64,000 bases of DNA from Candidatus Poribacteria bacterium (GTDB lineage Bacteria; Poribacteria; WGA-4E; GCA-2687025): NCBI GenBank assembly GCA_963665845.2, contig OY762492.1, forward strand, positions 3,886,615 to 3,950,614. Reading direction: 5' to 3'. This document shows positions 3,201-34,665 of this stretch, in pieces. The first letter of the stretch is position 1. Every line of letters starts with the position of its first letter. A program made the position numbers and the translations under genes. The notes under the pieces are model-generated. The model had not been told where the DNA came from, made no database searches, and worked only from the letters and a program-made list of their open reading frames with translations.

Positions 3201-3827
3201 ACGATACGGGATCAGGCGCTGGCGTTGAGCGGTCTTCTCCATGAACAGCTGGGCGGTCCGAGCGTCAAACCGCCGCAGCCTGCAGGTCTCTGGAAGGCGG
3301 TCGGGTATGTCGGCTCCAACACGGATACGTTTGTCGCCGACAAGGATCCAAGCCAGATCTACAGGCGAAGCCTGTACACGTTCTGGAAACGCACCGCGCC
3401 GCCGCCGCAGATGAACCTGTTCGACGCGCCGTCGCGGGAGGAGTGCGTCGTCCGGCGGGAGCGCACCAACACGCCGATGCAGGCGCTCGCGTTGATGAAC
3501 GACGCGCAGTATTTCACCGCGGCGAAGGCGTTTGCGGCGCGTATGATGAACGGAAACGAGGCGAACAGCGACGCCGAACGTCTGCGGCGCGGGTTCTTGA
3601 CGGCTGCAGCCCGTCCGCCGTCTGAACAGGAGGCGGCGATCCTGCTGGAGACGCTGGAGGCGCAGCGGGTCGAGTTTCAAGCGGACATCGAATCTGCCGC
3701 CAAGATTGTCGGACCCATCCCGGAAGGCGAGGCGCAAATGTCAGACGAAGAGCAAGTTGAGCTTGCCGCGTGGACGATGCTCGCCAACCTGATCATGAAC
3801 CTGGACGAGATTTTAAACAAAGGATAA
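252..3827 (+). CDS. Planctomycete-type cytochrome c / DUF1549 / DUF1553 (PSCyt1-PSCyt2-PSD1) protein
   Basis: Signal peptide, CFVCHG and CAQCHDHKYDP heme-binding motifs, WLDAARYADT, HPLTARVTVNRMW, HPELLDWLA, TNTPMQALALMN; a beta-rich insert in the middle. Confidence 0.93.
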   Translation: MSCVDHLFWKRRLGTALAAAAILSTAVMGWAQESANEAPDFNNVIRPILSENCFVCHGPDETQRKANLRLDLKADVFSDARGYSIVTPGKPDESPLYTRIAEENEHYRMPPIASGKKLEPEQIEAIRRWIEAGAEWKEHWAFIPPTRPEPPADLGDARLYNAIDAFIQKRLQKEGLSMSPEADRRVLARRVSLDLTGLPPSIEEVETFLADENADAYDRYVSRLMAKPAYGEHMARYWLDAARYADTHGLHLDNYREMWPYRDWVINAFNANMPFDQFTIEQLAGDLLPEPTLQQQIATGFNRCNVTTSEGGSINDEVYVRYAVDRAGAASTVWMGLTVGCAQCHDHKYDPISQKEFYQLFAYFNNVAEPAMDGNRKDTPPIVKVPTADQDARLAQLTEQIQTFAARIKDEAVPEVDAAQAEWEARQARWTPLRPHAFTSQGKAALKLLDDHSLLASGENPDKEVYEVAAEMPAGSFHAIRLEAIPDPSLPKKTSGRSDNGNSVLTGFEAEIATAEKPDEWKRIAFSEAWADYEQAREFAVVNAVDGKPETGWGLSGRQSRNVHAVFLADKPFSVSAGRIRFRLKYESPHAKHQHGRFRLSVTDAPFLEPVGSYAVFEDWHLIGPFEAENASAALRRAFALENENVNLGKNYKVNGKDYKWQKKAEWEHELTAAASEKPAVSYFYRNIRSDASQRAVIQLETDGHFKVFLNREELYESPFGSVSTASVHRFQLPLRPGNNQLVVKHLHTNADAVVKIEAATEEPIVPAEIVDAIAVASAERDEAAAQKIQRHYREFITKDEQVRGWFAQSADLQKQKTDLENGFATTLVMRELEKPRGAYVLERGAYDKRGEEVQPNTPAVLPPLPDGSPPNRMGFAQWLMDPGHPLTARVTVNRMWQQVFGTGIARTAEDFGSQGEPPTHPELLDWLAIEFIESGWDVQHMMRLIVSSAAYRQSSQATPELLAADPENRLYARGPRFRLDAETIRDQALALSGLLHEQLGGPSVKPPQPAGLWKAVGYVGSNTDTFVADKDPSQIYRRSLYTFWKRTAPPPQMNLFDAPSREECVVRRERTNTPMQALALMNDAQYFTAAKAFAARMMNGNEANSDAERLRRGFLTAAARPPSEQEAAILLETLEAQRVEFQADIESAAKIVGPIPEGEAQMSDEEQVELAAWTMLANLIMNLDEILNKG

Positions 3828-3846
3828 GAGAATGAACGCGATCAAA
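3804..3846 (+). repeat. Left copy of degenerate 43-bp direct repeat bracketing the array
   Basis: gacgagattttaaacaaaggataagagaatgaacgcgatcaaa; 34/43 identical, ungapped, to 26099-26141. Confidence 0.8.
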
Positions 3847-6552
3847 ACGCCCCAATGGACGACTCGAAACCGCAAAGGGATTCGTATGAAAAAGACCGCC
3901 TCTCTGCTTCGCATGTTCGCGTTGGCCGTCTGCCTCCACGCCGTTCTTCTGACGGGCGCCGCCGCTCAAGTCGGCGATGGACCCAGCGTCGGATCGGTCA
4001 GTGACGACTACACCTTTGAAACGATCGATGTTCCGGGCGTGGATTTCTTGTCGCTGACAGCGAGCAGCGATTTTGAAGATTACGCCGGCTACACGCTCAA
4101 CGCGGACGGCAAAGAGGTCGGGTTCACGCTCATCAAGGGCGTCTTCAAGACATACGATTTCCCCGGCTCGAAGAAAACCCGTTTCTTTGCGTTCGGCAAC
4201 AACGGAAACGCCGCCGGCTACTACGAGGACAGCGAAGGCCGTCACCGCGGCGTCGTCTTGGAGAACGGCGAGATGCGGACATACGATTTTCCAAATTCCG
4301 TTGAAACGGAGATATACGGCATCAGCGACGCGACGGGGGTTATGACCGGCAACTGGACAGACGCTTCCGGCGTTCGCCGCGGATTTACAGGGGACACGGT
4401 CCTTGAGTTCCCTGGGGCGACAGCGACATTCGTCGATTTTGTCAATTCTGAAGGCAATTTGTTCGCCAGCTACATAGACACGGACGGGGTGTTTCAAGAA
4501 TTCGCATACTCCTCTGACGGCAGGTATATTGCGTTCGATCTCGCAAACGCAGAAAACCTCGAATTCTTTTATGTGCATGGCTATAACGATGCAAAAGTAA
4601 GGGTCGCGCGGGGCAAAGCGTTCGGCGATGTCGTACGCACTTACATTGGCACCTTTGTGGACGGTCTGCGCGAATTGAAGGTTCCGGACAGCGTCAGCAC
4701 GGAGGGCTGGAACATCAATCAGGACGGCTCTGTTGTCGGGTACTACGACACAGCAGATGGACGCCGACACGGGTTTAATGCCAAACCCGTTGAAGCCGTT
4801 GATGAGCCTGTTTTTCAAGCCGACGGCTTCAACTACACTTATGAGAATATTGATGTCCCGGGCGTCGATTATTTAGCGTTGACCGCAAGCAGCGACTTTG
4901 GGGATTACGCCGGCTACACGAAAAACGCCGACGGAAAAGAGGTTGCCTTCACGCTCATCAACGGCGTCTTCAAAACGTACGATTTTCCCGGTTCGCGGAA
5001 CACGTATTTCTACGCCCTCGGCAATAACGGCGACGCCGCCGGATACTACGAGGACAGCGAGGGCCGCCACCGCGGCATCGTCTTAGAGAACGGCCAACTG
5101 CGCCCATACGATTTTCCTGGCTCCGTTGAAACAGAAATATTCGGCATTTCGGACGCGACGGGAAATCTGACGGGAAATTGGACAGACGCTTCCGGCATTC
5201 GGCGCGGATTCACAGGGGACCTCGTCGTTGAGTACCCGGGAGCAGTGGAAACATTCGCCGACTTCATCAATTCGTCGGGCGGCATGGTCGGCAGCTACGT
5301 AGATGAGAACGGCGCCTACACGCCGTACCTACGCGCTGCGGACGGCAGGTTTGTATCGTTCACCCTTCCAACCGATGAAACGTATGAATTCTTTTTTGTG
5401 CATGGTCAAACCGACACAAAGATTTCCGTTGCGCGAGGCAAAGTGGTCGGCGAGGTTCCCCGAACCTATGTCGGTTCATTCCTTGGCGGGCTTCATGAAT
5501 TGAAAGTTCCGGGCAGCGTTTCAACGGAGGGCTACAATATCAATCAGGACGCTTCGGTCGTCGGAAATTATCTTTCAGCGGACGGACGCCGGCACGGCTT
5601 TATTGCCAGACTCGATACCGAGGAAGTGAGCGGCGCTTTCAGCAACGCCTACACCGTCACATTGACAAAAGGTCTCAACATGATCTCGGTACCGCTGAAG
5701 CCGTCAACGCCCATGAACGCAAAGGCGCTCGCAGGGCTGGCAGGGTCGACAACCGTCATCAAACTGGACGAGGCGAAACAGCGTTTCGTCGGATGGACGC
5801 CTGCAGCCCCGAACGGCGGCTTCGACATCGAAGGCGGCAAGGGGTATATCGTCAATGTGCCGACAGCGCGCCGCTTTGCCTTCGTCGGCGCGGCATGGAC
5901 AGACCCTGCCGACACAGCCCAGGGCGCGCCGCCCCTCTTCACAGAGACGCCCCAGGAAACATGGGCGTTCGTTGTGAGCGGGCATCTGAAAGGCAAGCGC
6001 GCGTCGGACGGGTATCAGGTCATCGTCCGCAACCGCAGAACGAACGAAACGATCACGGCGCCTGTGCTGGACGGTTACTTTGCCGCGGCGACAGCCGACC
6101 TGTCCCGCCGAAGCGTTGTGGAAGCTGGAGACGCGATGGAGCTGCGCGTCGTCGGTCCGGACGGCAATATCGAATCGCAAACCTTCCGCTTTGACGTGAC
6201 TTCAGAGCATCTTGCCAACGCGGTTCTGTCGGTCAGGCTGTATGGAATCGGCATGCCTTCGCAAAGTCGGCTGCTGCAGAATTACCCGAACCCGTTCAAC
6301 CCAGAAACCTGGATTCCGTATCAGCTCGCCGAAGACAGCGAGGTCTCGATTGAGATTTACGATGCATCGGGCAGGCTGATTCGCTCCCTCTCGCTCGGCT
6401 ATCAGTCCGCGGGCTTTTACAACAGCCGCGGCAGAGCCGCTTACTGGGACGGACGCAACGCGGTCGGAGAGCAGGTTGCCAGCGGCGTCTATTTTTACCA
6501 GCTGAAAACGCCCACATTCCGCCAAACGCGGCGGCTTCTGATTTTGAAATGA
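3832..6552 (+). CDS. Array paralog 1: secreted protein, 2 propeller-like modules + conserved tail with FlgD-Ig/T9SS type-A-like domain
   Basis: Signal peptide (likely start MKKTAS at 3886 after AAAGGGA); 2x YT[FY]ExIDVPG...RHGF module; tail LLQNYPNPFNPETWIPYQL...SGVYFY...LLILK. Confidence 0.9.
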   Translation: MNAIKTPQWTTRNRKGIRMKKTASLLRMFALAVCLHAVLLTGAAAQVGDGPSVGSVSDDYTFETIDVPGVDFLSLTASSDFEDYAGYTLNADGKEVGFTLIKGVFKTYDFPGSKKTRFFAFGNNGNAAGYYEDSEGRHRGVVLENGEMRTYDFPNSVETEIYGISDATGVMTGNWTDASGVRRGFTGDTVLEFPGATATFVDFVNSEGNLFASYIDTDGVFQEFAYSSDGRYIAFDLANAENLEFFYVHGYNDAKVRVARGKAFGDVVRTYIGTFVDGLRELKVPDSVSTEGWNINQDGSVVGYYDTADGRRHGFNAKPVEAVDEPVFQADGFNYTYENIDVPGVDYLALTASSDFGDYAGYTKNADGKEVAFTLINGVFKTYDFPGSRNTYFYALGNNGDAAGYYEDSEGRHRGIVLENGQLRPYDFPGSVETEIFGISDATGNLTGNWTDASGIRRGFTGDLVVEYPGAVETFADFINSSGGMVGSYVDENGAYTPYLRAADGRFVSFTLPTDETYEFFFVHGQTDTKISVARGKVVGEVPRTYVGSFLGGLHELKVPGSVSTEGYNINQDASVVGNYLSADGRRHGFIARLDTEEVSGAFSNAYTVTLTKGLNMISVPLKPSTPMNAKALAGLAGSTTVIKLDEAKQRFVGWTPAAPNGGFDIEGGKGYIVNVPTARRFAFVGAAWTDPADTAQGAPPLFTETPQETWAFVVSGHLKGKRASDGYQVIVRNRRTNETITAPVLDGYFAAATADLSRRSVVEAGDAMELRVVGPDGNIESQTFRFDVTSEHLANAVLSVRLYGIGMPSQSRLLQNYPNPFNPETWIPYQLAEDSEVSIEIYDASGRLIRSLSLGYQSAGFYNSRGRAAYWDGRNAVGEQVASGVYFYQLKTPTFRQTRRLLILK

Positions 6553-6559
6553 AAACTGA

Positions 6560-9274
6560 ATGGCGAAAGGCAAACGCATGAACTTGATCAAAACGCGCCG
6601 CCAATGGACGACTCGAAACCGCAAAGGGATTCGCATGAAAAAGACCGCCTCTCTGCTTCACATGTTCGCGCTTCTCGTCTGCTCCAGCTTCGTTCTTCTG
6701 ACAGGCGCCTCCGCGCAAGAAAACGCCGGCGACAACTACACCTTTGAGACAATCGACGTTCCGGGCGTCGATTTCTTGTCCCTGACCGCAAGCAGCGACT
6801 TTGAAGATTACGCCGGTTACACGCTCAACGCAGACGGCAAAGAGGTCGCTTTCACGCTCATTGACGGCGTCTTCGAAACGTACGATTTCCCCGGCTCGCA
6901 GAAAACCCGTTTCTATGCCTTCGGCAATGACGGCCGCGCCGCGGGATACTACGAGGATGGCGAGGGGCTGTCCCGCGGCATCGTCTTAGAAAACGGCGAA
7001 CTGCGGCAATACGATTTTCCAAACTCGGTCCAGACGGAGATCTACGGCATCAGCGATGCAACGGGGGTATTGACAGGGAATTTTATAGACGCTTCAGGCG
7101 TTCGCCGCGGGTTCTCAGGCAACACAATCATTGAAGTCCCCGAGGCATTGGAAACATATGCCGAATTTGTGATAGGGAGCTATGTCCTCGGCAGCTACAT
7201 AGACGCTGCAGGCGTATACCGTGGATACACGTTTGCGCCAGATGGTCGTTTTTCATTTCTCGACCTTCCGGATGCGGCAACTTTGGACTACTTCTTTGTG
7301 CATGGCGCAAACGCCTCTAGGATTGCCGTTATCACCGCCAAAGCCGTAGGGGATGTCCCACGCACCTACGTCGGCACATTCTACAATTTGCAGGAGTTGC
7401 AGTTTCCGGGCAGCGCGATCACCCAAGGCTACAATATCAATCGGGACGGTTCCGTTGTCGGACACTACGATTCAGCGGACGGCAAACGGCATGGCTTCAT
7501 CGCCAAGCCCATTGATGGCGACGAGCCGCCCGTTTCCATACCCTCCGAATTTCACTACGTTTTTGAGAGCATTGATGTTCCCGGCGTGGAGTATCTGGAG
7601 TTGACTGCAAGCAGCGACTTTGGCGATTACGCCGGCAATACGAAAAGCGCCGATGGCAAAAAGACGGTCGCCTTCACTCTCATCAATGGCGTTTTTAAGA
7701 CCCACGATGTTCCCGGTTCGCAGAACACGTATTTCTACGCCCTCGGCAATAACGGCGATGCTGCCGGGCATTACGAGGACAGCGAGGGGCTTCACCGCGG
7801 CATCGTCTTAAAAAACGGCGAACTGCGCCCATACGATTTTCCTGGCTCCGTTGAAACAGAGATATACGGCATTTCGGATGCGACGGGAAATCTGACGGGC
7901 AACTGGACAGACGCTGACGGCGTCCGCCGCGGATTCACAGGGGACATCGTCGTTGAAGTCCCCGGAGCATTGGAAACGTATACCGATTTTGTGAACGCAG
8001 AGGGGAGTATGGTCGGCAGTTATGTAGACGCTGAAGGCGCCTACCATGCATATCTGCGCGCCCCGGACAGCAGGTTTGGTTCGCTCACACTTTCAGGCGC
8101 GCCTACGCTGGAATACTTTTTTGTGCATGGCGTCACCGATACAAGGATTGCCGTTGCCCGCGCTAAAGCCGTGGGGGATGTCCCGCGCACCTACGTCGGC
8201 ACCATCTATGAAATGTATGAGCTGCGGTTCCCGGGCAGCGTCAGCACGGAGGGGTACAATATCAATCAGGACGGCTCCGTCGTCGGCAACTATGCTTCAG
8301 CGGACGGGCGCAGGCACGGGTTCATCGCCAGACCTGCCGACGAGGAGGTGAGCGATCGTTTTGGCAACGCCTACACCGTCACATTGACAAAAGGTCTCAA
8401 CATGATCTCGGTTCCGTTGAAACCGTCAACGCCCATGAACGCAAAGGCGCTCGCCGGGCTGGCAGGATCGACAACCGTCATCAAACTGGACGAGGCGAAG
8501 CAGCGTTTCGTCGGATGGACGCCTGCAGCCCCGAACGGCGGCTTCGACATCGAAGGCGGCAAGGGGTATATCGTCAATGTGCCGACAGCGCGCCATTTTG
8601 CCTTCGTCGGCGCGGCATGGACAGACCCTGTCGAGACAGCCCAGGGCGCGCCGCCCCTCTTCACAGAGACGCCCCAAGAAACATGGGCGTTCGTTGTGAG
8701 CGGGCATCTGAAAGGCAAGCGCGCGTCGGACGGGTATCAGGTCATCGTCCGCAACCGCAGAACGAACGAAACGATCGCGGCGCCTGTGCAGGACGGTTAC
8801 TTCGCCGCCGCGACGGCTGATCTGTCCCGCCGAAGCGTTGTTGAAATCGGCGACTCGATGGAGCTGCGCGTCGTCGGTCCGGACGGCAATATCGAATCGC
8901 AAACCTTCCGCTTTGACGTGACTTCAGAGCATCTTGCCAACGCGGTTCTGTCGGTCAGGCTGTATGGAATCGGCATGCCTTCGCAAAGTCGGCTGCTGCA
9001 GAATTATCCGAACCCGTTCAACCCTGAAACGTGGATTCCGTACCAGCTCGCCGAGGACAGCGAGGTCTCGATTGCGATCTACGACGCTTCAGGCAGGCTG
9101 ATTCGCTCCCTCTCGCTCGGCTATCAGTCCGCGGGCTTTTACAACAGCCGCGGCAGAGCCGCTTACTGGGACGGACGCAACGCGGTCGGAGAGCAGGTTG
9201 CCAGCGGCGTCTACTTTTACCAGCTGAAGACGCCCACATTCCGCCAAACGCGGCGGCTTCTGATTTTGAAATGA
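6560..9274 (+). CDS. Array paralog 2: secreted protein, 2 modules + FlgD/T9SS-like tail
   Basis: Same architecture; tail nearly identical in DNA to paralog 1. Confidence 0.9.
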   Translation: MAKGKRMNLIKTRRQWTTRNRKGIRMKKTASLLHMFALLVCSSFVLLTGASAQENAGDNYTFETIDVPGVDFLSLTASSDFEDYAGYTLNADGKEVAFTLIDGVFETYDFPGSQKTRFYAFGNDGRAAGYYEDGEGLSRGIVLENGELRQYDFPNSVQTEIYGISDATGVLTGNFIDASGVRRGFSGNTIIEVPEALETYAEFVIGSYVLGSYIDAAGVYRGYTFAPDGRFSFLDLPDAATLDYFFVHGANASRIAVITAKAVGDVPRTYVGTFYNLQELQFPGSAITQGYNINRDGSVVGHYDSADGKRHGFIAKPIDGDEPPVSIPSEFHYVFESIDVPGVEYLELTASSDFGDYAGNTKSADGKKTVAFTLINGVFKTHDVPGSQNTYFYALGNNGDAAGHYEDSEGLHRGIVLKNGELRPYDFPGSVETEIYGISDATGNLTGNWTDADGVRRGFTGDIVVEVPGALETYTDFVNAEGSMVGSYVDAEGAYHAYLRAPDSRFGSLTLSGAPTLEYFFVHGVTDTRIAVARAKAVGDVPRTYVGTIYEMYELRFPGSVSTEGYNINQDGSVVGNYASADGRRHGFIARPADEEVSDRFGNAYTVTLTKGLNMISVPLKPSTPMNAKALAGLAGSTTVIKLDEAKQRFVGWTPAAPNGGFDIEGGKGYIVNVPTARHFAFVGAAWTDPVETAQGAPPLFTETPQETWAFVVSGHLKGKRASDGYQVIVRNRRTNETIAAPVQDGYFAAATADLSRRSVVEIGDSMELRVVGPDGNIESQTFRFDVTSEHLANAVLSVRLYGIGMPSQSRLLQNYPNPFNPETWIPYQLAEDSEVSIAIYDASGRLIRSLSLGYQSAGFYNSRGRAAYWDGRNAVGEQVASGVYFYQLKTPTFRQTRRLLILK

Positions 9275-9281
9275 AAACTGA

Positions 9282-12200
9282 ATGGCGAAAGGCAAACGCA
9301 TGAACTTGATCAAAACGCGCCGCCAATGGACGACTCGAAACCGCAAAGGAATTTCCATGATGTTCGCTCCGAAAAAGACCGCCTCTCTGCTTCACATGTT
9401 CGCGCTTCTGGTCTGCTCCAGCTTCGTTCTCCTGACAGGCGCCTCCGCGCAAGAAAACGCCGGCGCCGACTACACATTTGAGACGATTGAGGTTCCGGGC
9501 GTCGATTTCTTGTCGCTGACAGCGAGCAGCGACTTTGAAGATTACGCCGGCTACACGCTGAACGCGGACGGCAAAGAGGTCGCTTTCACGCTCATCGACG
9601 GCAACTTCAAAACGTACGATTTCCCCGGCTCGCAGAGTACCCGTTTCTTTGCGCTCGGCAACAACGGAAACGCCGCCGGCTACTACGTGGACAGCGAAGG
9701 CCTTCACAAGGGCGTCGTCCTGTTGAACGGCGAGCTGCAGTCGTACGATTTTCCAAACTCCGTCCAGACGGAGATATACGGCATCAGCGACGCGACGGGA
9801 GCCTTGACCGGCAATTTCACGGACGCTGACGGCATTCGCCGCGGGTTCTCTGGGGAAAAGATCATTGAGTATCCCGGCGCGCTGGAAACTTTTTCCGACT
9901 TCGTGAATGCGAGAGGGCTTCTGGTCGGCAGCTATGTAGACGCTGACGGGATATACCATGCCTACGGCCTTCTTCCAAACGGGCGGTTTGTTCCGATCAA
10001 CCTTGAAGACGCAGCCACTCTGGAATACTTCTTTGTGCATGGCATCAACGACGCCGGGGCGATCGTCGCCCGCGCCAAACGGACGGGAGCTGTTCCGCTG
10101 ACCTATATCGGCAGCGCGTCTGAAGGGCTGCAAGAATTCAAGGTTCCGGGCAGCGTTAGCACCGAGGGGTACAATATCAATCAGGACGGCTCCATCGTCG
10201 GACACTACGAATCCGAGGACGGGCGGCGATACGGGTTTATCGCCAAACCCGCAGAGGACGATGATCCCATTGACCGCCCCGACGTTCTCGCCTACACTTT
10301 TGAAAGTATCGATGTCCCGGGCGTCGATTATTTGGCGTTGACGGCGAGCAGCGATTTTGAGGATTACGCCGGCTACGCGAAAAGCGCCGACGGTGAAAAA
10401 ATGGTCGCCTTCACGCTCATGGACGGCGTCTTCAAAACGTACGATTTTCCAGGGTCGAAGAACACGTACTTCTACGCGCTCGCGAACAACGGGACCGCCG
10501 CCGGATATTACGAGGATAGCGATGGGTTGAGCCGCGGCGTCCTCTTGGTGAACGGCGAACTGCATTCGTTCGATTATCCAAATTCCGTTGAAACGGAGAT
10601 CTACGGCATTAGCGACGTCACCGGCGCGCTGACAGGCAATTTCACGGACGCTTCCGGGGTTCGCCGCGGATTCTCAGGAGAGACCATCGTTGAAGTCCCC
10701 GGCGCCTTGGCAACGTACGCCGATTATGTGAACGCGAGCGGGCGTATTGTGGGCGGCTACATAGACGCTGACGGCATACCTCATGCGTATGTGCGCACTC
10801 CGGACAACAGGTTTGTAACGATCGACGTGGATAACCCTGAAGACCAGGAATACCATTTTCTGCATGGCATCAGCAATGCCGGGATTTTCATCGGCCGCGC
10901 CAAAGCGGTGGACGGGGCTCCGATCACTTATGTCGGCACAGCGCTCCAAGGGGATACGGAGTTGCATTTTCCAGGCAGCGTCAGTACCAACGGATGGAAT
11001 ATCAACCAGGACGGCTCTGTCGTTGGGTACTACGACACAGCGGACGGCCGCAGACGCGGGTTTGTCGCCAGGCTCGCCGGCGACGCCCCCGAACCTCCGC
11101 CCGCCGACGACAACTACACTTATGAGCCGATCTACGTCCCGGGCGTCGATTTCTTGTCGGTGACATCGAGCAGCGATTTTGAAGATTACGCTGGGTACAC
11201 GCTGAACGCCGACGGCAAAGAGGTTGCCTTCACGCTCATCGACGGCGACTTCAAAACGTACGATTTCCCAGGTTCGCAGAGTACCCGTTTCTTTGCGCTC
11301 GGCAACAACGGAAACGCCGCCGGCTACTACGTGGACAGCGAAGGCCGTCACAAGGGCGTCGTCCTGTTGAACGGCGCGCTGCAGCCGTACGATTTTCCAA
11401 ACTCGGTCCAGACCGAGATATGGGGCATCAGCGACTCGACGGGAGCCTTGACCGGCAATTTCATCGACGCATCCGGAATTCGCCGCGGGTTTTCAGGACA
11501 GGAGATCATCGAATATCCTGGCGCGGCTGAAACATACGCCGATTTTGTGAACTCAAACGGCGGCATGGTCGGCAGCTATGTGAATGCGGACGGCGTCTAT
11601 TATCCGTACATACGCACCCCGACCGGCAGATTCACGTCTGTTGAGCTGGCAAGGGCGGCCTTTCTGGAATACTTTTTCGTGCATGGCATCAACGACGCAA
11701 GGACGGTTGTCGCGCGGACGAAACCGAAGGGCGGCGTCCCGCAAACCTATGTCGGCACATTTCAGGGAGGGCTTGAGCCGTTTAAGGTTCCAGGCAGCGC
11801 CAGCACGGAGGGGTATAACATCAATCAGGACGGCTCTATTGTCGGGCATTACGATTCTGCAGACGGCAAACGGTATGGCTTCATCGCCAAACCGATTGAC
11901 GACGCCGAGCCGCCCGTTCCGACGCCCTCCGAGTTTCACTTCGTTTTTGAGACGATTGACGTTCCCGGCGTGGAGTATCTGGAGCTGACTGCAAGCAGCG
12001 ACTTTGAAGATTACGCCGGCAACACGAAAAGCGCCGACGGCAAAAAGACGATCGCCTTCACGCTCATCGACGGCGTCTTCAAAACGTACGATTTTCCTGG
12101 GTCGAAGAACACGTACTTCTACGCCCTCGGCAACAACGGACGCGCCGCTGGACACTACGAAGACAGCGAAGGGCGCCATCATGGCGTCGTCTTGGTGAAC

Positions 12201-13661: not shown

Positions 13662-13668
13662 AAACAGC

Positions 13669-16374: not shown

Positions 16375-16381
16375 GAACTGC

Positions 16382-19300
16382 ATGATGAAAGGGAAACGCA
16401 TGAACCTGATCAAAACGCTTCGCATGTCGGCGCTGTTCGTCTGTCTCAACGCCGTTCTTTTGACGGGCGCCGCCGCCCAAGACAACGGCGCCCTCGAGTA
16501 CACTTTTGAGACGATCTCCGTTCCAGGCGTCGATTTCCTATCGCTGACGGCAAGCAGCGATTATGAAGATTACGCCGGCTACACGCGCAACGCGGACGGC
16601 AAAGAGGTCGGTTTCACTCTAATTGACGGCGTCTTCAAGACGTACGATTTTCCCGGCTCGAAGAAAACCCGTTTCTTTGCGCTCGGCAACAACGGAAACG
16701 CCGCCGGCTACTACGAAGACAGCGAAGGCCGCCACCGCGGCGTCGTCTTGGAGAACGGCGAGCTGCGCCAATACGATTTTCCTGGCTCCATCGAAACGGA
16801 GATCTACGGCATCAGCGACGCGACAGGCGCGATGACAGGACAGTTCGTCGGCGAGGATGGCGTTCGCCGCGGTTTCACTGGAGAGAGAGTCGTTGAGATT
16901 CCTGGAGCGACCGCGACATACGCCGATTTTATCAATTCGCACGGCGTATTGGTAGGCTCCTACACTGATGAGAACGGCATATTTCACCTATACATAGAGT
17001 ACATGGGCGAATGGTCTTCATACCCCATTCAAAATGCGGAACAATTCGAATACGCGTTTGTGCATGGGGTCACTGACCTATTTACCGCCATCTTCCGCGC
17101 TAAAAAGCTGGGCGATGTGCCGCGCACCTTTGTCGGCCAGATCGCCCCCGAATCAGAATTGCGCGTTCCGGGCGCTGTTGTCACAGAAGGCTGGAACATC
17201 AATCAGGACCACTCCGTCGTCGGATACTATGAAACGGCAGACGGAAAACGGCATGGGTTTGCCGCCAACCCGGTCGACGAGCTCGACTATGTTTACGAGA
17301 CGATTGAGGTTCCGGGCGTCGACTTTTTAGCGGTGGCGGCGAGCAGCGACTTTCAAGATTACGCCGGCTTCACGCGGAACGCGGACGGCAAAGAAGTCGC
17401 CTTCACGCTCATTGACGGCGTCTTCGAGATGTACGATTTTCCCGGCTCGCAGAAAATGCATTTCTACGCGCTCGGCAACAACGGAAACGCCGCCGGCTAC
17501 TATGTGGACAGCGAAGGCAAACATCGAGGCGTCGTCTTAGAAAACGGCGACTTGCGTCCGTACGATTTTCCGGGGTCTGTCGAAACCGAGATATGGGGCA
17601 TCAGCGATACGACAGGCGGCTTGACCGGCAATTTCGTAGGCGCCGACGGCGTACGGCGCGGATTCACACACGATGAAATCGTTGAAGTTCCTGGAGCCGT
17701 AGCAACTTATGCCGATTTCGTGAGTCCAGAAGGTGTAATGGTCGGCAGCTACATAGACGCTGACGGGGTGTACCATCCGTACCGGAGCGATCTTAACGAC
17801 GGAAATATCGTCACCTTTGACCTCCAAGCCGCAGAGTCTTTTGAGTACTATTTTGTGCATGGGGCCGCGGACCTCGCCCCGCATCTGAGGCAATCCCAAA
17901 TGCATCTGATGCGATCCAAAAAGATCGGCGATGTACCGCGCACGCATGTCGGGGATGTGTTCGGAAAGCGGCAAGAGCTGCAATTTCCGGGCAGCGTTTG
18001 GACGCAAGGTTACAATATCAACGCGGACCTGTCGGTGGTCGGATATTATGAAGCAGCCGACGGCAGCTTGCATAGTTTTGTCGCCAGGCTCGTCCGCGAA
18101 GCCCCTGAACCTCCGCCCGACGACGACAACTACACGTTTGAGCCGATCCACGTTCCAGGCGTCGATTTCTTGTCGGTGACAGCGAGCAGCGACTTTGAAG
18201 ATTACGCCGGCTACACGCGCAACGCCATCGGAAAAGAGATCGCCTTCACGCTCATCGACGGCGTCTTCACAACCTACGATTTCCCAGGGTCGCAAAAAAC
18301 GCATTTCTACGCGCTCGGCAACAACGGAACCGCCGCCGGCCATTATATGGACAGCGGCGGTCTGTACCATGGCGTCGTTTTGGAGAACGGCGAACTGCGC
18401 CAATACGATTTTCCAAACTCGGTACAGACGGAGATATACGGCATCAGCGACTCGACGGGAGCGATGACAGGAAATTTCGTCGGCGAGGATGGCGTTCGCC
18501 GCGGATTTTCAGGCGACACCATCGTTGAATTCCCAGGGGCGGCGGAAACATACGCCGATTTTGTGAGCGGGCTGGGCAATGTCGTCGGCAGTTATGTTGA
18601 CGCCGACGGCGGCTACAACGCCTACCTGCGCGGCCCTGGAGGCAGTTTTGCGACACTGGATATTCCAGCGGTGTCCAATCTGGAATACTTTTATCTGCAT
18701 GGAATCAACGATGCGCTGGTCGCCGTTGGCCGCGCCAAAGCGGTCGGCGATGTGCCGCGCACCTATGTCGGCAACCCGCTCAATCTCAAAGAATTGCGTG
18801 TCCCGTACAGCGTCACGGAGGGCTGGAATATCAATCAGGACGGCTCCGTCGTCGGACACTACGACTCGGACGGACGCCGACTTGGGTTTATCGCTCGACC
18901 AAAAGAGGCGTCCCCGCCCGGCGTCCCGCATCCGAAACTGACCTACAGATTTGAGACGATAGAGGTTCCGGGCGTCGATTTTTTAGCGGTGACCGCCAGC
19001 AGCGACTTTGAAGATTATGCGGGCAACACGCCGGGTCCTGACGGCAAAATGGTCGGCTTTACGCTGATTGACGGCGTTTTCACCACCTATGATTTCCCCG
19101 GCTCGCAAGGCGTCTATTTCTATGCGCTCGGCAACGACGGAAAAGCCGCTGGACACTACTTAGACAGCGATGGTCTGTACCACGGCGTGATCTTAGAAAA
19201 CGGCGAACTGCGGCAGTACGATTTTCCGGGCGCCGTTCAAACGGAGATATACGGTCTCAGCGATTCGACCGGCGCCTTGACAGGGAATTTCATAGACGCT

Positions 19301-21487
19301 TCCGGCGTTCGCCGCGGGTTCTCCGGGGACGCCATCGTTGAGGCGCCCGGCGCCTCGGCGACATACGCCGATTTTGTGAGCTGGACAGGGCATATTGTCG
19401 GCAGCTATGTGGACGCCGACGGCGTCTACCATGCGTACATGCGCAGCTCGCTGGGCAGGTTTCTCTCCATTGACCTTCCGAATGCGGCCAATCTAGAATA
19501 CTTTTTTCTGCACGGTCTCAACAATGCAAGGTTTGTCGTTGGACGAGCCAAAGCGGTCGGCGATGTCCCGCGAACCTATGTCGGCAGCCCGCTCAACCTC
19601 AAAGAATTGCATGTTCCGGACAGCGTCAGCACGGAGGGATGGAATATCAACCAAGACGGCTCCGTCGTCGGACATTACGACTCGGCGGACGGGCGGCGGC
19701 ATGGGTTCATCGCCCGACCCGTCCCTGCCGACCCGGAACCTGAACCGCCTTCCATCGAAGGCTATTACACTTTTGAAAGCATTGATGTCCCCGGCATCGA
19801 CTTTCTGGAAGTGGCGGCAAGCAACGACTTTGGCGGCGTCGCCGGCAACACCCGCATTCCTGGCAGTCGGAAGACCGTCGGCTTCACATTGATCGACGGC
19901 GTTTTCAAAACCTACGATTTTCCTGGCTCGCAGCGAATCTATTTCTACGCCCTCGGCAACGACGGAAGAGCCGCCGGACACTACAGGGACAGCGACGGAA
20001 TTTACCATGGCGTTGTCTTGGAGAACGGCGAACTGCGGCAATACGATTTTCCCGGCGCTGTCGAAACCCACATCTACGGCATCAGCGATGCAACAGGGGC
20101 TTTCAGCGGCAACATTGTCGATGAAGCGGGAGTTTCCCGCGCTTTCTCAGGGGATCTGGTCATTTCAGTCCCTGGCGCCATCAACACTTACGGAGATTTT
20201 GTCAATGCAGAAGGAGCTGTCGTCGGCAGCTATATTGATGCCGATGGAATGTTCCATGGGTTCATCCGCGACCCCGACGGCAGCTTCACCAATATAGACC
20301 TTCCAGAAATGCAGAATCTGCAGTATCTGTTTGTGAACACCATCACGGACGCCGGCGTTGTAGGTTTCAGAGCCAAAGCGGCGAACGATATTCTACGGTC
20401 GTATATCCTTCTGCCCAACGGCTCCCTCCATGAAATACGATTCCCAGGCAGCGTTATCACTGCCGTCCGAAACGTTAACCAGGATGGTAGCATTGTCGGT
20501 TTTTACGACACGCCGGACGGACGCCGGCACGGCTTTTTCGGCAGACCTGTCAACAAGGAATTGAGCGATCTTTTTGGCAACGCCTACACCGTCGCGTTGG
20601 CAAAGGGTCTCAACATGATCACGGTACCGTTGAAACCGCCGGCGCCGATGAACGCAAAGGCGCTCGCAGGGTTGGCAGGATCGACAACCGTCATCAAACT
20701 GGACGAGGCGAAACAGCGATTCGTCGGATGGACGCCCGGCGCCACGAACGACGGCTTCGCCATCGAAGGCGGAAAGGGGTATATCGTCAATGTGCCGACA
20801 GCGCGTCATTTCGCTTTCGCCGGCGCTCCATGGACAGACCCTGCCGATACAGCGCAGGGCGCGCCGCCCCTCTCCACAGACAATATCCAGAGCGCATGGG
20901 CGTTCGTTGTGAGCGGTCGACTGGAAGGCAAGCGCGCGCTGGACGGTTACCATGTTGTCGTCCGCAACCGCAGAACGAACGAAACGTTCTCGGCGCCGGT
21001 ACAGGACGGTTACTTCGCCGCCGCGACGGCTGATCTGTCGCGCCAAAGCGTTGTGGAAGCGGGAGACGCGATGGAGCTGCGGGTCGTCGGTCCGGACGGC
21101 AATATCGAATCGCAGACCTTCCGCTTCGACGTGACTTCTGAGCATCTTGCAAACGCGGTTCTGCCGGTCAGGCTATACGGCGTCGGCAAGCCCTCTCAAA
21201 ATCGGCTGCTGCAGAATTACCCGAACCCGTTCAACCCTGAAACCTGGATTCCGTACCAGCTCGCGGAAGACAGCGACGTCACGATTCAGATATACGACGC
21301 TTCTGGACGGCTGATTCGTTCGCTCGCGCTTGGTTATCAACCCGCGGGCTTTTACAACAGCCGCGGCAGAGCGGCGTATTGGGACGGGCGCAACGCGGTC
21401 GGAGAGTTGGTCGCCAGCGGCGTCTATTTTTACCATCTGAAAACGCCCGCATTCCGCCAAACGCGGCGGCTCCTCATTTTGAAATGA
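16382..21487 (+). CDS. Array paralog 5: secreted protein, 5 modules + FlgD/T9SS-like tail
   Basis: Module starts YTFETISVPG, YVYETIEVPG, YTFEPIHVPG, YRFETIEVPG, YTFESIDVPG. Confidence 0.9.
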   Translation: MMKGKRMNLIKTLRMSALFVCLNAVLLTGAAAQDNGALEYTFETISVPGVDFLSLTASSDYEDYAGYTRNADGKEVGFTLIDGVFKTYDFPGSKKTRFFALGNNGNAAGYYEDSEGRHRGVVLENGELRQYDFPGSIETEIYGISDATGAMTGQFVGEDGVRRGFTGERVVEIPGATATYADFINSHGVLVGSYTDENGIFHLYIEYMGEWSSYPIQNAEQFEYAFVHGVTDLFTAIFRAKKLGDVPRTFVGQIAPESELRVPGAVVTEGWNINQDHSVVGYYETADGKRHGFAANPVDELDYVYETIEVPGVDFLAVAASSDFQDYAGFTRNADGKEVAFTLIDGVFEMYDFPGSQKMHFYALGNNGNAAGYYVDSEGKHRGVVLENGDLRPYDFPGSVETEIWGISDTTGGLTGNFVGADGVRRGFTHDEIVEVPGAVATYADFVSPEGVMVGSYIDADGVYHPYRSDLNDGNIVTFDLQAAESFEYYFVHGAADLAPHLRQSQMHLMRSKKIGDVPRTHVGDVFGKRQELQFPGSVWTQGYNINADLSVVGYYEAADGSLHSFVARLVREAPEPPPDDDNYTFEPIHVPGVDFLSVTASSDFEDYAGYTRNAIGKEIAFTLIDGVFTTYDFPGSQKTHFYALGNNGTAAGHYMDSGGLYHGVVLENGELRQYDFPNSVQTEIYGISDSTGAMTGNFVGEDGVRRGFSGDTIVEFPGAAETYADFVSGLGNVVGSYVDADGGYNAYLRGPGGSFATLDIPAVSNLEYFYLHGINDALVAVGRAKAVGDVPRTYVGNPLNLKELRVPYSVTEGWNINQDGSVVGHYDSDGRRLGFIARPKEASPPGVPHPKLTYRFETIEVPGVDFLAVTASSDFEDYAGNTPGPDGKMVGFTLIDGVFTTYDFPGSQGVYFYALGNDGKAAGHYLDSDGLYHGVILENGELRQYDFPGAVQTEIYGLSDSTGALTGNFIDASGVRRGFSGDAIVEAPGASATYADFVSWTGHIVGSYVDADGVYHAYMRSSLGRFLSIDLPNAANLEYFFLHGLNNARFVVGRAKAVGDVPRTYVGSPLNLKELHVPDSVSTEGWNINQDGSVVGHYDSADGRRHGFIARPVPADPEPEPPSIEGYYTFESIDVPGIDFLEVAASNDFGGVAGNTRIPGSRKTVGFTLIDGVFKTYDFPGSQRIYFYALGNDGRAAGHYRDSDGIYHGVVLENGELRQYDFPGAVETHIYGISDATGAFSGNIVDEAGVSRAFSGDLVISVPGAINTYGDFVNAEGAVVGSYIDADGMFHGFIRDPDGSFTNIDLPEMQNLQYLFVNTITDAGVVGFRAKAANDILRSYILLPNGSLHEIRFPGSVITAVRNVNQDGSIVGFYDTPDGRRHGFFGRPVNKELSDLFGNAYTVALAKGLNMITVPLKPPAPMNAKALAGLAGSTTVIKLDEAKQRFVGWTPGATNDGFAIEGGKGYIVNVPTARHFAFAGAPWTDPADTAQGAPPLSTDNIQSAWAFVVSGRLEGKRALDGYHVVVRNRRTNETFSAPVQDGYFAAATADLSRQSVVEAGDAMELRVVGPDGNIESQTFRFDVTSEHLANAVLPVRLYGVGKPSQNRLLQNYPNPFNPETWIPYQLAEDSDVTIQIYDASGRLIRSLALGYQPAGFYNSRGRAAYWDGRNAVGELVASGVYFYHLKTPAFRQTRRLLILK

Positions 21488-21494
21488 AAACAGC

Positions 21495-23336
21495 ATGACG
21501 AAAGGCAAACGCATGAACCTGATCAAAACGCTTCGCATGTTCGCCCTGTACGTCGGTCTCAACGCCGTTCTTCTGACAGGCGCCGCCGCCCAAAACATCG
21601 TCGGCGTCAACTACATCTTTGAGTCGATCAACGTTCCGGGCGTCGATTTTTTGGTGTTGACCGCAAGCAGCGACTTTGAAGATTACGCCGGCTACACGCT
21701 CAGCGCTGACGGCGAGAAGGTCGTTGGCTTCACCTTGATCGACGGCGTCTTCAAAACCCACGATTTTCCTGGCTCGCAGGGTACCTATTTCGACGCCCTC
21801 GGCAATAACGGTACCGCTGCGGGACACTACGTGGACAGCGAGGATCTTTACCATGGCGTCATCTTAGACAAAAACGGCGAGTGGACCCAGTACGATTTTC
21901 CAGGCGCCGTCGAGACGTCCATCTTCGGCATCAGCGATGAAACGGGGGCGTTGAGCGGCGACATCGTCGATGCCGACGGAGTGACCCATGGATTTTCAGG
22001 AGATACGGTGATCACATTCCCCGGCGCTGCCAACACATATGCGGACTTTGTCAATGCTGACGGCGTTATTGTCGGCAGCTACGTAGACGAAGACGGCGTG
22101 TTTCAAGGGTTCATTCGCGACCCCGACGGCAGTTTTACGACGATCGACATTCCCGAAATGCCAGATTTGTGGTATCTCTTTGTGAAGGGGATCAACAATG
22201 ACGGCGTTGTGATCTTTAGAGCCAGAGCCGAAGGCGATATTCCGCGTTCCTATATCCTCCTGCCAGGCGGCGACCCTCAGGAATTGCGGTTCCCAGGCAG
22301 CATCAACACCGTGGTGCGAAATATCAATCAGGACGGCTCCATTGTCGGACACTATACTTCAGAGGACAGGCGCATACACGGCTTCATCGCTAGACCCGCC
22401 AGCAAGGAATTGAGCGATCATTTTGGCAACGCCTACACCGTCGCGTTGGCGAAGGGTCTCAACATGATCACGGTTCCGCTGAAGCCGCCGGCGCCGATGA
22501 ACGCCAAGGCGCTCGCGGGGCTGACAGGCTCCACAACCGTCATCAAACTGGACGGAACAAAGCAGCGTTTCGTCGGCTGGACGGCGGGCGCTCCAAACGA
22601 CGGCTTCGACATCGAAGGCGGCAAGGGGTATATCGTCAATGTCCCGACAGACCGCCATTTTGCCTTCGCCGGCGCGGCATGGACAGACCCTGACGATACA
22701 GCGCAGGGCGCGCCGCCTCTCGCGGCGGAAAATATCCAGAGCGCATGGGCGTTCGTTGTGAGCGGACATCTGGAAAGCAGGCGCGCTTTGGACGGGTACG
22801 AGGTTCTCGTACGCAACCGCAGAACCAATGAGATCATCTCGGCTCCTGTGCAGGACGGTTACTTCGCCGCGGCGACGGCCGACTTGTCGCGCCGAAGCGT
22901 TGTTGAAATCGGCGACGCGATGGAGCTGCGCGTTGTCGGTCCGGACGGCAATGTTGAATCGCAAACCTTCCGCTTTGACGTGACTTCCGAACATCTCGCC
23001 AACGCGGTTTTGCCGGTCAGGCTGTATGGAATCGGCAAACCCTCTCAAAATCGGCTGCTGCAGAATTATCCGAACCCGTTCAACCCAGAAACCTGGATAC
23101 CGTATCAGCTCGCGGAAGACAGCGACGTCTCGATTCAGATATACGACGCATCGGGCAGGCAGATTCGTTCCCTCTCGCTCGGTTATCAGTCCGCGGGCTT
23201 TTACAACAGCCGCGGCAGAGCGGCTTACTGGGACGGGCGCAACGCGGTCGGGGAACAGGTTTCCAGCGGCGTCTACTTTTACCATCTGAAAACGCCCACA
23301 TTCCGTCAAACGCGGCGGCTCCTCATTTTGAAATGA
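21495..23336 (+). CDS. Array paralog 6: secreted protein, 1 module + FlgD/T9SS-like tail
   Basis: Minimal form of the family (613 aa). Confidence 0.9.
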   Translation: MTKGKRMNLIKTLRMFALYVGLNAVLLTGAAAQNIVGVNYIFESINVPGVDFLVLTASSDFEDYAGYTLSADGEKVVGFTLIDGVFKTHDFPGSQGTYFDALGNNGTAAGHYVDSEDLYHGVILDKNGEWTQYDFPGAVETSIFGISDETGALSGDIVDADGVTHGFSGDTVITFPGAANTYADFVNADGVIVGSYVDEDGVFQGFIRDPDGSFTTIDIPEMPDLWYLFVKGINNDGVVIFRARAEGDIPRSYILLPGGDPQELRFPGSINTVVRNINQDGSIVGHYTSEDRRIHGFIARPASKELSDHFGNAYTVALAKGLNMITVPLKPPAPMNAKALAGLTGSTTVIKLDGTKQRFVGWTAGAPNDGFDIEGGKGYIVNVPTDRHFAFAGAAWTDPDDTAQGAPPLAAENIQSAWAFVVSGHLESRRALDGYEVLVRNRRTNEIISAPVQDGYFAAATADLSRRSVVEIGDAMELRVVGPDGNVESQTFRFDVTSEHLANAVLPVRLYGIGKPSQNRLLQNYPNPFNPETWIPYQLAEDSDVSIQIYDASGRQIRSLSLGYQSAGFYNSRGRAAYWDGRNAVGEQVSSGVYFYHLKTPTFRQTRRLLILK

Positions 23337-23343
23337 AAACTGC

Positions 23344-26100
23344 ATGAAGAAAGACAAACGCATGAACTTGATCAAAACGCTCCGCCAATGGACGACGCGT
23401 CCGATTCAAACCGCAAAGGGTATTCGCATGATGTTCGCACAGAAAAAGACCGCCTCTCTGCTTGGCATGTTGGCGCTGTTCGTCTGCCTCAACTCCGTTC
23501 TTCCGATGGAAGCCGCCGCGCAACTTCAAGAGCTTCGCGCGAATTACTTCTACACCCACGAGACGATCGACGTTCCGGATGTCAATTTTTTAGCGTTGAC
23601 GGCGAGCAGCGATTTTGAGGATTACGCCGGGTACACGCGGAACGCCGACGGCAAAGAGGTCGCTTTCACGCTCATGGACGGCGTCTTCAAAACCTACGAT
23701 TTCCCCGGCTCGCAGAAAACCCATTTCTACGCGCTGGGGAATGATGGTACCGCCGCCGGCCACTACGAGGACAGCGAAGGGCAGTTTCACGGGATCATTC
23801 TCGAAAATGGGGAGTTTCGGGAATACAATTTTCCGGGTTCCGTCGAAACGGAGATCTACGGCATCAGCGACGCGACAGGAGCCTTGACCGGCAATTTCAC
23901 AGACGCTGACGGCATTCGCCGCGGCTTCACAGGGGACGAGATCATTGAGTTCCCTGGCGCTGTGGAAACGTTTGCCGATTTTATCAACTCAAGCGGCGGC
24001 ATGGTTGGGAGCTACATTGACGCTGACGGGCTGTATCACTCTTATCAGCGGACCCCAGGTGGGATTTTTATCAATCTCCGATCTCCAGGGCCGCTGGAAT
24101 ACATGTTTGTGCAGGGCATCAACGACGCATGGACTGTTATTGTGCGAGCCAAAGCGTTCGGCCGCGTTCCGCAAACCTTTGTCGGCACATTTCAAGACGG
24201 ACTGATAAGATTTGAATTTCCGGGCGCCGTTTTCACGGAGGGCTGGAACATCAATCAGGACGGGTCTATCGTCGGGCATTACGACACCGCCGACGGCCGC
24301 CGACACGGGTTCATCTCAAGACCCATACCAGGCACCCCCGCCGAACCCGTAGAGTACCCCGCCGTCCCCGGCTATACTTTTGAGAGCATTGATGTGCCGG
24401 GCGTGGATTACTTAGCGGTGACAGCAAGTTCCGATTTTGAGGATTACGCAGGAAACACGTTGAGCTCCGACGGTCAAAAAATGGTCGGCTTTACGCTCAT
24501 GGACGGCGTTTTCAAAACGTACGATTTTCCTGGATCAAAGAACACGTACTTCTATGCGCTCGGCAATGATGGAAGAGCAGCCGGACATTACGAGGATAGC
24601 GGCGGGCAGTTCCACGGGATCATTCTCGAAAATGGCGAGCTGCGGCAATTCAATTATCCCGGCGCCGTTCAAACAGAGATTTACGGCATCAGCGACTCAA
24701 CAGGCGACCTGACAGGCAATTTCATTGACGCCGACGGCGTTCGCAAGGGATTCACAGGCGGGCGATTCCCGATCGTTGAGTTCCCCAAGGCGGTGGAAAC
24801 ATATGCCGAGTTCATGAACGGGCAAGGCAGTGTGGTCGGCAGCTATGTGGACGCTATGGGGCTGCGCCATGCCTATCTGCGCAACCAGTTTCGCCTCTTT
24901 GTATCTTTCGTGCATCCAGAAGCGGCAAAACTGGAGGTCTTTTCTTTGAGCGGTCTCAACGATGCGCGGGTTGCCGTTATCCGATCGAAACTGAAGGATG
25001 ATGTCTCGCGCACTTATGTCGGCACATTCATACACGGACTGAACGAATTGCGCGTCCCCGGCAGCGTCGGCACAGAGGGCTGGAATATCAATCAGGACGG
25101 CTCTGTCGTCGGACACTATGATTCACCCGATGGACGCCGACACGGGTTCATCGCCCGACCCGCCGCCAAGGAAGTGAGCGATCGTTACGACAATGCTTAC
25201 ACCGTCGCGTTGATGAAGGGTCTCAACATGATCTCGGTTCCGCTGAAGCCGCCGGCGCCGATGAACGCAAAGGCGCTCGCGGGGTTGACAGGCTCCACAA
25301 CCGTGATCAAACTGGACGAGGCAAAGCAGCGTTTCGTCGGATGGACGCCTGGCGCTCCTAACGACGGCTTCGACATCGAAGGCGGAAAAGGGTATATCGT
25401 CAATGTGCCGACAGCGCGCCATTTTGCCTTCGCCGGCGCGGCATGGACCGATCCTGTCGATACGGCGCAGGGCGCGCCTCCTCTCTTCACCGAAAATATC
25501 CAGAGCGCATGGGCGTTCGTTGTGAGCGGACATCTGGAAGGCAAGCGCGCCTTGGAAGGCTATAAGGTACTCGTCCGCAACCTCAGAACAAACGAAACGA
25601 TTGCGGCTCCAGTACAGGACGGTTACTTCGCCGCCGCGACGGCCGACCTGTCCCGCCGAAGCGTTGTCGAAGCTGGGGACGCCATGGATCTGCAGGTCGT
25701 CGGTCCGGACGGGAATATCGAATCGCAAACCTTCCGCTTCGACGTGACTTCAGAGCATCTCGCCAACGCCGTTCTGCCCGTTACGCTGTACGGCATCGGC
25801 ATGCCGTCGCAGAGTCGGCTTCTGCAGAATTATCCGAACCCGTTCAACCCTGAAACCTGGATTCCGTACCAGCTGGCGGAAGACAGCGACGTCTCGATTG
25901 AGATATACGACGCTTCTGGACGACTGATTCGCTCCCTGTCGCTCGGCCATCAACCCGCGGGCTTTTACAACAGCCGCGGCAGAGCCGCCTATTGGGACGG
26001 GCGCAACGCGGTCGGGGAGCAGGTTGCCAGCGGCGTCTACTTTTACCATCTGAAAACGCCCACATTCCGCCAAACGCGGCGGCTTCTGATTCTGAAATGA
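23344..26100 (+). CDS. Array paralog 7: secreted protein, 2 modules + FlgD/T9SS-like tail
   Basis: Same architecture. Confidence 0.9.
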   Translation: MKKDKRMNLIKTLRQWTTRPIQTAKGIRMMFAQKKTASLLGMLALFVCLNSVLPMEAAAQLQELRANYFYTHETIDVPDVNFLALTASSDFEDYAGYTRNADGKEVAFTLMDGVFKTYDFPGSQKTHFYALGNDGTAAGHYEDSEGQFHGIILENGEFREYNFPGSVETEIYGISDATGALTGNFTDADGIRRGFTGDEIIEFPGAVETFADFINSSGGMVGSYIDADGLYHSYQRTPGGIFINLRSPGPLEYMFVQGINDAWTVIVRAKAFGRVPQTFVGTFQDGLIRFEFPGAVFTEGWNINQDGSIVGHYDTADGRRHGFISRPIPGTPAEPVEYPAVPGYTFESIDVPGVDYLAVTASSDFEDYAGNTLSSDGQKMVGFTLMDGVFKTYDFPGSKNTYFYALGNDGRAAGHYEDSGGQFHGIILENGELRQFNYPGAVQTEIYGISDSTGDLTGNFIDADGVRKGFTGGRFPIVEFPKAVETYAEFMNGQGSVVGSYVDAMGLRHAYLRNQFRLFVSFVHPEAAKLEVFSLSGLNDARVAVIRSKLKDDVSRTYVGTFIHGLNELRVPGSVGTEGWNINQDGSVVGHYDSPDGRRHGFIARPAAKEVSDRYDNAYTVALMKGLNMISVPLKPPAPMNAKALAGLTGSTTVIKLDEAKQRFVGWTPGAPNDGFDIEGGKGYIVNVPTARHFAFAGAAWTDPVDTAQGAPPLFTENIQSAWAFVVSGHLEGKRALEGYKVLVRNLRTNETIAAPVQDGYFAAATADLSRRSVVEAGDAMDLQVVGPDGNIESQTFRFDVTSEHLANAVLPVTLYGIGMPSQSRLLQNYPNPFNPETWIPYQLAEDSDVSIEIYDASGRLIRSLSLGHQPAGFYNSRGRAAYWDGRNAVGEQVASGVYFYHLKTPTFRQTRRLLILK

Positions 26101-26141
26101 TGAGGTTCTAAACAAAGGACAAGCGCATGGATCCGATCAAA
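26099..26141 (+). repeat. Right copy of degenerate 43-bp direct repeat bracketing the array
   Basis: gatgaggttctaaacaaaggacaagcgcatggatccgatcaaa; the ATG sits at the same offset in both copies. Confidence 0.8.
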
Positions 26142-29313: not shown

Positions 29314-29315
29314 TC

Positions 29316-34350: not shown

Positions 34351-34577
34351 ATGAACAAACGCATGATCAAGCGAACGATCCAGCATGGCGCTACTACCTA
34401 AAAGGAGAGACGCGCCTTGAAAACGCAAGCCTGGACCCTCTTGATCAAGATCCAAACATCAACAAGGCGCATTGGAAAGATACGCCGGCCGCTGCGTACA
34501 AAACGGAAACGCGGGAATTCCAACCTGACGAGGCACCTGGTCAGTTCTGGGTGGAAGGCTGGAACGACACTCCCTGA
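34351..34577 (+). pseudogene. Possible internally deleted gene remnant
   Basis: RBS AGGAGA + ATG opens only MNKRMIKRTIQHGATT* (34351-34401); a protein-like out-of-frame segment (DPAWRYYLKG...QFWVEGWNDTP*) ends at 34577. Confidence 0.4.
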
Positions 34578-34665
34578 ACCGTTAAGACGGCTGAACCGCT
34601 CCGCGTCCGCGCCGAGACATGCGTTCTCGGCGCGGACGCCCCCCTTCTGCAGAAAGGAACATGAC

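Follow-up and report, generated by a model that had tools for sequence, protein, structure and literature searches.

Duplicated copies of a DUF1553–DUF1501 gene junction around a putatively secreted repeat-protein array in Poribacteria point to a probable insertion with long target duplication

Insertion with long target duplication, reportedly going back to work by Nobusato et al. (2000, Gene 259:99), is a known and poorly understood route of gene gain in bacteria, and published models link such duplications mostly to DNA cutting by restriction enzymes. The window analysed here is a stretch of 64,000 nucleotides (nt) from a Candidatus Poribacteria bacterium (genome G000; GenBank assembly GCA_963665845.2, contig OY762492.1, positions 3,886,615 to 3,950,614 of the forward strand), in which a 22-kb array of seven same-strand genes separates a DUF1553 gene from a DUF1501 gene. 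Both in G000 and in a sister species of the same genus (G001), two copies of the junction between these host genes surround the array. A foreign propeller gene was probably inserted here with a target duplication of about 100 bases in the ancestor of the genus and then likely amplified in tandem. An earlier note on the window had proposed entry by a junction-duplicating event, either attL/attR-like or a long target duplication; the second fits the evidence and the first does not.

The two outer junctions lie 22.3 kb apart. The left copy (3783..3860, plus strand; right edge approximate) consists of the real 3' end of DUF1553, a 4-nt spacer and a decayed DUF1501 start (MNAIK...), so that array gene 1 does open with a ghost of the DUF1501 start, as the earlier note had read it. 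The right copy (26099..26181, plus strand) holds a decayed DUF1553 3' end followed by the real DUF1501 start; its ghost (26099-26122) reads DEVLNKG, with the stop codon mutated to CAA and the motif AAAGGA kept. Without gaps, 3804-3846 and 26099-26141 are identical at 34 of 43 positions with the ATG in register. A scan of all 7,957,350 genome positions on both strands returned the partner of each 43-mer as its sole match above 27/43, the next-best position reaching 27/43. Gene starts gave the same picture: among the 3.49 million pairs formed by 2,644 ATG-anchored starts that a crude gene caller supplied, two non-paralogous pairs matched at 34/43 or better, both of them adjacent local duplicates. 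For the right copy the next-best start scored 24/43, and for the left copy it scored 27/43. The similarity is thus not generic to gene starts. The junction repeat is unique in the genome, shortened derivatives being confined to the internal junctions of the array itself, and the left junction was crossed with zero differences by contigs of three runs from one study, which may be the source.

The duplication is longer in G001, which carries two array genes at the same DUF1553/DUF1501 site. There, the two junction copies are identical at 74 of 104 aligned nt, of which 49 precede the DUF1501 ATG and 55 follow, and they take in the 3' end of DUF1553 with its stop as well as the DUF1501 start; the similarity is in frame for about 15 codons on the upstream side and 18 on the downstream side. 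The 43 nt still alignable in G000 therefore represent a real match that understated the extent of the duplicate. Relative to G001, the left copy in G000 is shorter, and its right DUF1553 ghost is shorter by 35 nt. Across species, the left copy of G001 matched the right copy of the window at 61/104 positions, and the right copy of G001 matched the left copy of the window at 60/104; the background in the genome did not exceed 51.

The ghosts also record where the copied DNA came from and how it decayed. The DUF1553 ghost of G001 reads ANLMLNQNEVLNKG with the stop kept, compared with ANLIMNLDEILNKG and a stop in the real gene, and its DUF1501-start ghost reads MNAIKTPRQRTMRSRFFE, compared with the live DUF1501 start. 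This latter ghost bears genus-specific residues and not the outgroup versions YLKLETRRQFF or FVQLETRRHFF, indicating that the copied DNA was the host's own. Differences in the ghosts were spread over all three codon positions (4/2/3 and 7/8/4), whereas those in the live DUF1501 start fell as 1/1/6, six of the eight at third positions. The invariant core of the junction copies, AAACAAAGGA, includes a Shine-Dalgarno-like AAAGGA that sits 7 nt ahead of the ATG and is supplied by the last codons of DUF1553 (AAA GGA TAA). The unused halves of the repeats decayed while this core stayed unchanged, and both copies may have persisted because the core holds AAAGGA inside the coding end of DUF1553.

Both host genes are intact by Pfam, as had been proposed: DUF1553/DUF1549/PSCyt1 (252..3827, plus strand; 1191 amino acids, aa) and DUF1501 (26127..27593, plus strand; 488 aa), which share 93% and 97% aa identity with their G001 counterparts, respectively. 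The two orthologs are directly adjacent in relatives, as the note had supposed. In four genomes of the same family (G003, G005, G006 and G007), DUF1553 is followed by DUF1501 with no intervening gene, across spacers of 15-206 nt, and the DUF1501 proteins are about 72-77% identical to that of G000; no close DUF1501 was found in G002 and G004, which are 61-64% complete. Among 80 metagenome DUF1501 loci, 65 had at least 500 nt of upstream DNA, and in 52 of these 65 a DUF1553 homolog ended within 250 nt upstream of DUF1501. The cargo family occurred in none of these loci, and the 80 include no member of the genus of G000 (best identity 70%). As to the empty site suggested as a check, the four outgroups have an adjacent, cargo-free pair with different spacers, and no empty allele was found within the genus. 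No publication treating DUF1501 and DUF1553 together was found.

The array genes encode proteins of 613-1701 aa and lie 4-7 nt apart. In each, a signal-peptide-like stretch is combined with between one and five repeats, each about 270 aa long, and with a tail of roughly 300 aa that ends in a FlgD-Ig/TIGR04183-type domain; the propeller repeats total 18. On the plus strand they are gene 1 (3832..6552; 906 aa, with a ghost-derived leader and two repeats), gene 2 (6560..9274; 904 aa, two repeats, with a junction-derived leader and an ATG at 6578), gene 3 (9282..13661; 1459 aa, four repeats), gene 4 (13669..16374; 901 aa, two repeats), gene 5 (16382..21487; 1701 aa, five repeats), gene 6 (21495..23336; 613 aa, one repeat) and gene 7 (23344..26100; 918 aa, two repeats), whose TGA overlaps the start of the right ghost. 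The repeat of gene 6 (21603-22409, plus strand), folded from a 62-row alignment, gave an all-beta model predicted to be a six-bladed beta-propeller at a predicted local distance difference test (pLDDT) score of 94.7, against 41 for the single-sequence fold; the best solved structures were the six-bladed propellers Pizza6 and the PknD sensor (template-modelling score about 0.6, 14% identity). The cargo likely consists of secreted beta-propeller proteins. The repeat belongs to no Pfam family, and its matches to HAF repeats were weak. Searches with Pfam (all seven genes) and NCBIfam (three of the seven) matched the FlgD-Ig/TIGR04183 tails and, weakly, the repeats, and returned no restriction or modification genes in the insert, which holds the seven paralogues and no mobile-element genes; an ESM Atlas search retrieved hypothetical clusters only. 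Among the seven other genomes of the family the cargo repeat was present only in G001, compared with 122 of the 143 genomes that represent other families within the class, so that lateral acquisition is likely.

The internal structure of the array argues for growth in place. All six internal junctions consist of a stop, 25 nt and ATGAAC..GATCAAAAC. Around the ATG they agree with the outer copies at 16-18 of 22 nt, which is what multiplication of a unit with the borrowed start would leave behind. Every array gene opens with a copy of this start; in genes 5 and 6 the ghost-derived MNLIKTLR immediately precedes the hydrophobic signal stretch, and each of the remaining five genes has another candidate start farther inside. 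In quick trees, the nine tails of the genus formed one clade with support 100 and its 21 propellers were scattered among 62 rows. Nucleotide identity of the tails was 86-96% and 92% within the two species and 83-86% between them. The ortholog of G001 gene 1 is gene 6 of G000, and that of G001 gene 2 is gene 1 of G000, a permuted order of the kind that duplication and loss within an array would produce. The earlier suggestion that the array itself entered is therefore not upheld, since two genes in G001 and seven in G000 make later assembly at the site likely. The note had also held that the array borrows the expression signals of the operon, which the gene layout would suggest; scans of 3500-23400 found 6 promoters against 7.5 expected and 17 terminators against 24.5 expected, and the lack of an excess is compatible with read-through without being evidence for it; the contigs of one RNA run were patchy.

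Events of this kind appear elsewhere in the genome. When gene ends were scanned for low-copy copies on the same strand, 73 lay within 60 kb and 252 elsewhere, and a repeat scan yielded 44 unique non-paralogous pairs, 24 of which touched a gene start or stop (16% for random points), a figure not counted here because the filter favours it. From these scans, 14 repeat-flanked stretches, hand-picked with high identity favoured, were compared with G001, and three proved to have a clean single-copy empty site without cargo there, the cargo being non-restriction in each. They are two unknown genes between 170-nt direct repeats (G000:C1:2862042-2865072), a TPR gene between repeats of 65-69 nt (G000:C1:1238649-1239881) and a PD40-type propeller gene, so read from its paralogues, between repeats of 37-38 nt (G000:C1:360738-362125). 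Their repeats are 94-100% alike, marking young inserts, and no motif common to the repeats of different cases was seen by eye. Two further stretches had a single copy in G001 with a short anchor on one side (30 or 7 nt). A 59-nt case (C1:200.3-200.9 kb) was excluded as a tandem duplicate of a gene end, which we take to be ssb-like from its DDDIPF tail, and a 41-nt case as a partial Lon-like tandem duplicate. In a non-random 560-kb sample of three G001 contigs (C13, C21 and C32, two chosen with cases already known), 193 block junctions, 63 synteny breaks and 23 gene-sized one-sided indels were counted; the 69-nt case lies within it and was missed by the block filter. One of the 23 was a long duplication around foreign cargo, and the others included one duplicated gene end and four changes in paralogue number. 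Together with the three clean cases, this suggests an event that recurs as a minority route. These contigs also show a very high rearrangement rate relative to G000 at about 90% nucleotide identity, with several breaks exactly at the edges of repeat copies.

The genome has 866 dRS3-like hairpins, considered as possible triggers, and none of them lies in the array or within about 800 nt of it. Of 20 other repeat pairs, 7 have such a hairpin no more than 150 nt from an inner end, compared with 5% of random points, a comparison confounded by both being intergenic. The sole ComEC match of the genome lies about 1.6 kb from the insert with 170-nt repeats, and since ComEC was also matched in 10 of 14 controls, its presence says little about competence.

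Several observations weigh against insertion with long target duplication. An empty site with the exact 4-nt junction was not found, the sole other genome of the genus carrying the insert, and a pattern scan of metagenome contigs for the junction gave zero matches, a scan that may omit near-identical records. In another family (f8), where DUF1553 orthologs are followed by other genes in 21 of 28 cases, mostly leucine-rich-repeat genes as judged from their sequences, no DUF1553 ghost was present within 1.5 kb, and none was seen by eye before DUF1501 in four inspected loci, which means that the junction also accepts inserts without visible duplication. The propeller repeats of the genus do not form one clade (10 changes, at least 5 forced), so there was more than one import, or several genes in the first insert, or an exchange of modules. 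Only three of the 14 hand-picked stretches were clean, nine being shared inserts, tandem duplicates or rearrangement breakpoints, and the single case among the 23 indels lies on a contig chosen in knowledge of it. Moreover, the end states do not separate a one-step insertion from duplication followed by deletions.

The last of these points leads to the rival explanation that survives best, albeit as an unlikely one. An ancestor with the order A-B-X (DUF1553, DUF1501, cargo) would have duplicated the segment from the end of A through B and X, and two deletions would have left A-b'-X-a'-B, the ghosts being remnants kept for their start signals. In its favour, the units of a WD40 array (G000:C1:586498-593800), whose copy number differs in G001, and of a tail-bearing array (952-964 kb) include the last codons of an unrelated neighbouring gene; DUF1501 is tandemly duplicated in family f8, and in G027 a DUF1501 3' remnant follows the inserted gene (L036:12675-12746). 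The available text of PMC3457768 likewise gives a combination of duplication and recombination as another way of arriving at such a pattern. Against it, at least three events are needed, an A-B-X ancestor occurs in none of the retrieved loci, the threonine-synthase-like gene that follows the f8 cargo arrays shares only 32% identity with its counterpart after DUF1501 in the window, and the lineage holds three one-step-like cases with empty sites.

Site-specific integration, with an attP that carried a replacement junction and an integrase that was later lost, is highly improbable. Integrative elements that restore their target gene leave imperfect direct repeats. The DUF1553 ghost retains the outgroup residues L and V in place of the M and I of the live gene; a copy carried by the donor could account for this, and a later change in the live gene does so equally well. 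As the earlier note had stated, the window encodes no recombinase, none appearing among its 34 proteins scanned with Pfam. The genome, 90% complete, has two PF00589 matches, both amid housekeeping genes and XerC/XerD-like by their context, and no PF00239 match, other serine-recombinase families lying outside the search. The roughly 104-nt repeat is ordinary host coding sequence, its DUF1501 part specific to the genus, and the other cases use unrelated sequences of 38-170 nt with nothing in common with this junction; together with the missing integrase, this makes an attL/attR origin unlikely. Among assembled contigs aligned to the sister locus at 80% likeness, 15 of the 251 joints were listed and included no excised-circle or array-skipping joint; at the left junction, no loose end was among the 24 of 167 listed. 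Chance convergence on a strong ribosome-binding context, suggested by AAAGGA and ATG in the best-conserved core, is refuted by the 74/104 identity in G001, the cross-species matches above background and the gene-start comparison, and its probability is negligible.

Insertion with long target duplication would have proceeded as follows. The host genes would have been adjacent and the cargo family absent, as the outgroups show, until a single repair or recombination event that used no integrase inserted the cargo between two target copies of about 104 nt; the end states do not tell staggered-break repair, template switching and single-crossover entry of a circle apart. The event may have survived in that DUF1553 kept its stop, DUF1501 kept its ribosome-binding site and the cargo gained a ready start site. 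Unequal recombination, first through the flanking repeats and later through the near-identical tails, could then have multiplied and reordered the genes, and propeller modules may have been traded with other copies of Poribacteria type. Finally, those halves of the repeats that had no use decayed around the retained AAACAAAGGA core. The locus is probably an unusually complete fossil of the birth of a secreted-protein array, its entry, borrowed start, amplification, reordering and decay legible from two species. Finding several non-restriction cargos with empty sites within a single lineage suggests that a host pathway is at work. It is possible, though on balance we doubt it, that this symbiont lineage has an integrase-free, cargo-independent and recurring route of gene gain, in which foreign genes come to lie between junction duplications of 40-170 nt that supply start signals, seed amplification and give birth to many of its secreted repeat-protein arrays.

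Further features were observed in passing. At the f8 loci (L036-L039, L042, L130 and L224-L251), the DUF1553/DUF1501 junction serves, independently of the present case, as a variable insertion site for leucine-rich-repeat-like genes. Downstream in the window, 28801-30098 holds two mutually similar genes without Pfam matches (35% in G001), a relative of which lies at C1:1720036 between 99-nt repeats, and 34417-36926 and 38768-41535 hold tandem paralogue pairs of PD40 propellers and of M28 peptidases with FlgD-Ig tails, respectively. A MotA-like and OmpA-like gene pair near an 82-nt repeat pair (G000:C1:1316798-1318853) may resemble ZorA/ZorB.

A literature search, most subscription papers lying outside its coverage, returned nothing on this locus, nor on the process in Poribacteria. 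The array proteins resemble the poribacterial repeat proteins with TIGR04183 tails (Kamke et al. 2014, PMC3909097), which in the accessible part of that paper have a signal-peptide-like start, repeats and a TIGR04183-type C-terminal domain; they differ in a repeat without a Pfam family, weakly matched by HAF repeats and predicted to be a six-bladed propeller, and that part of the paper does not deal with the entry or multiplication of such genes. The tail type, together with sponge metagenome runs, suggests that the organism is a sponge-associated member of Poribacteria. Genomic islands bounded by attL/attR share the direct repeats at both ends and the intact target genes, whereas the present locus has no integrase found, no core common to different sites and a repeat of about 104 nt of host coding sequence.

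The closest likeness is to the long-target-duplication class defined for restriction-modification genes by Furuta et al. (2010; PMC2853133). In the sections of that paper available, the repeats often span start or stop sites, so that target genes stay intact, insertion into an operon-like structure is recorded, and amplification through the repeats is mentioned. Shared with this class are a unique direct repeat longer than 30 nt, the lack of mobile-element genes, intact host genes, an operon-like target, later amplification and an entry insert below 20 kb, which here would correspond to the 4.8 kb of G001. PMC1643837 and PMC4978471, as far as their available text goes, only cite this type of insertion, and PMC3457768, in the portion accessible, recognises the pattern for 'other DNAs' as well, so that cargo other than restriction-modification genes is not new in itself. 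Unlike the published cases, the cargo here is likely a set of secreted beta-propeller genes, which cannot supply the break; the repeats are older, at 71-79% alike compared with 92-100% in the table rows seen of PMC2853133; and the insert grew into a 22-kb array in which every member has a borrowed start. The class of event is therefore already described, and what is notable here is the non-restriction cargo, the age and the growth into a 22-kb array.

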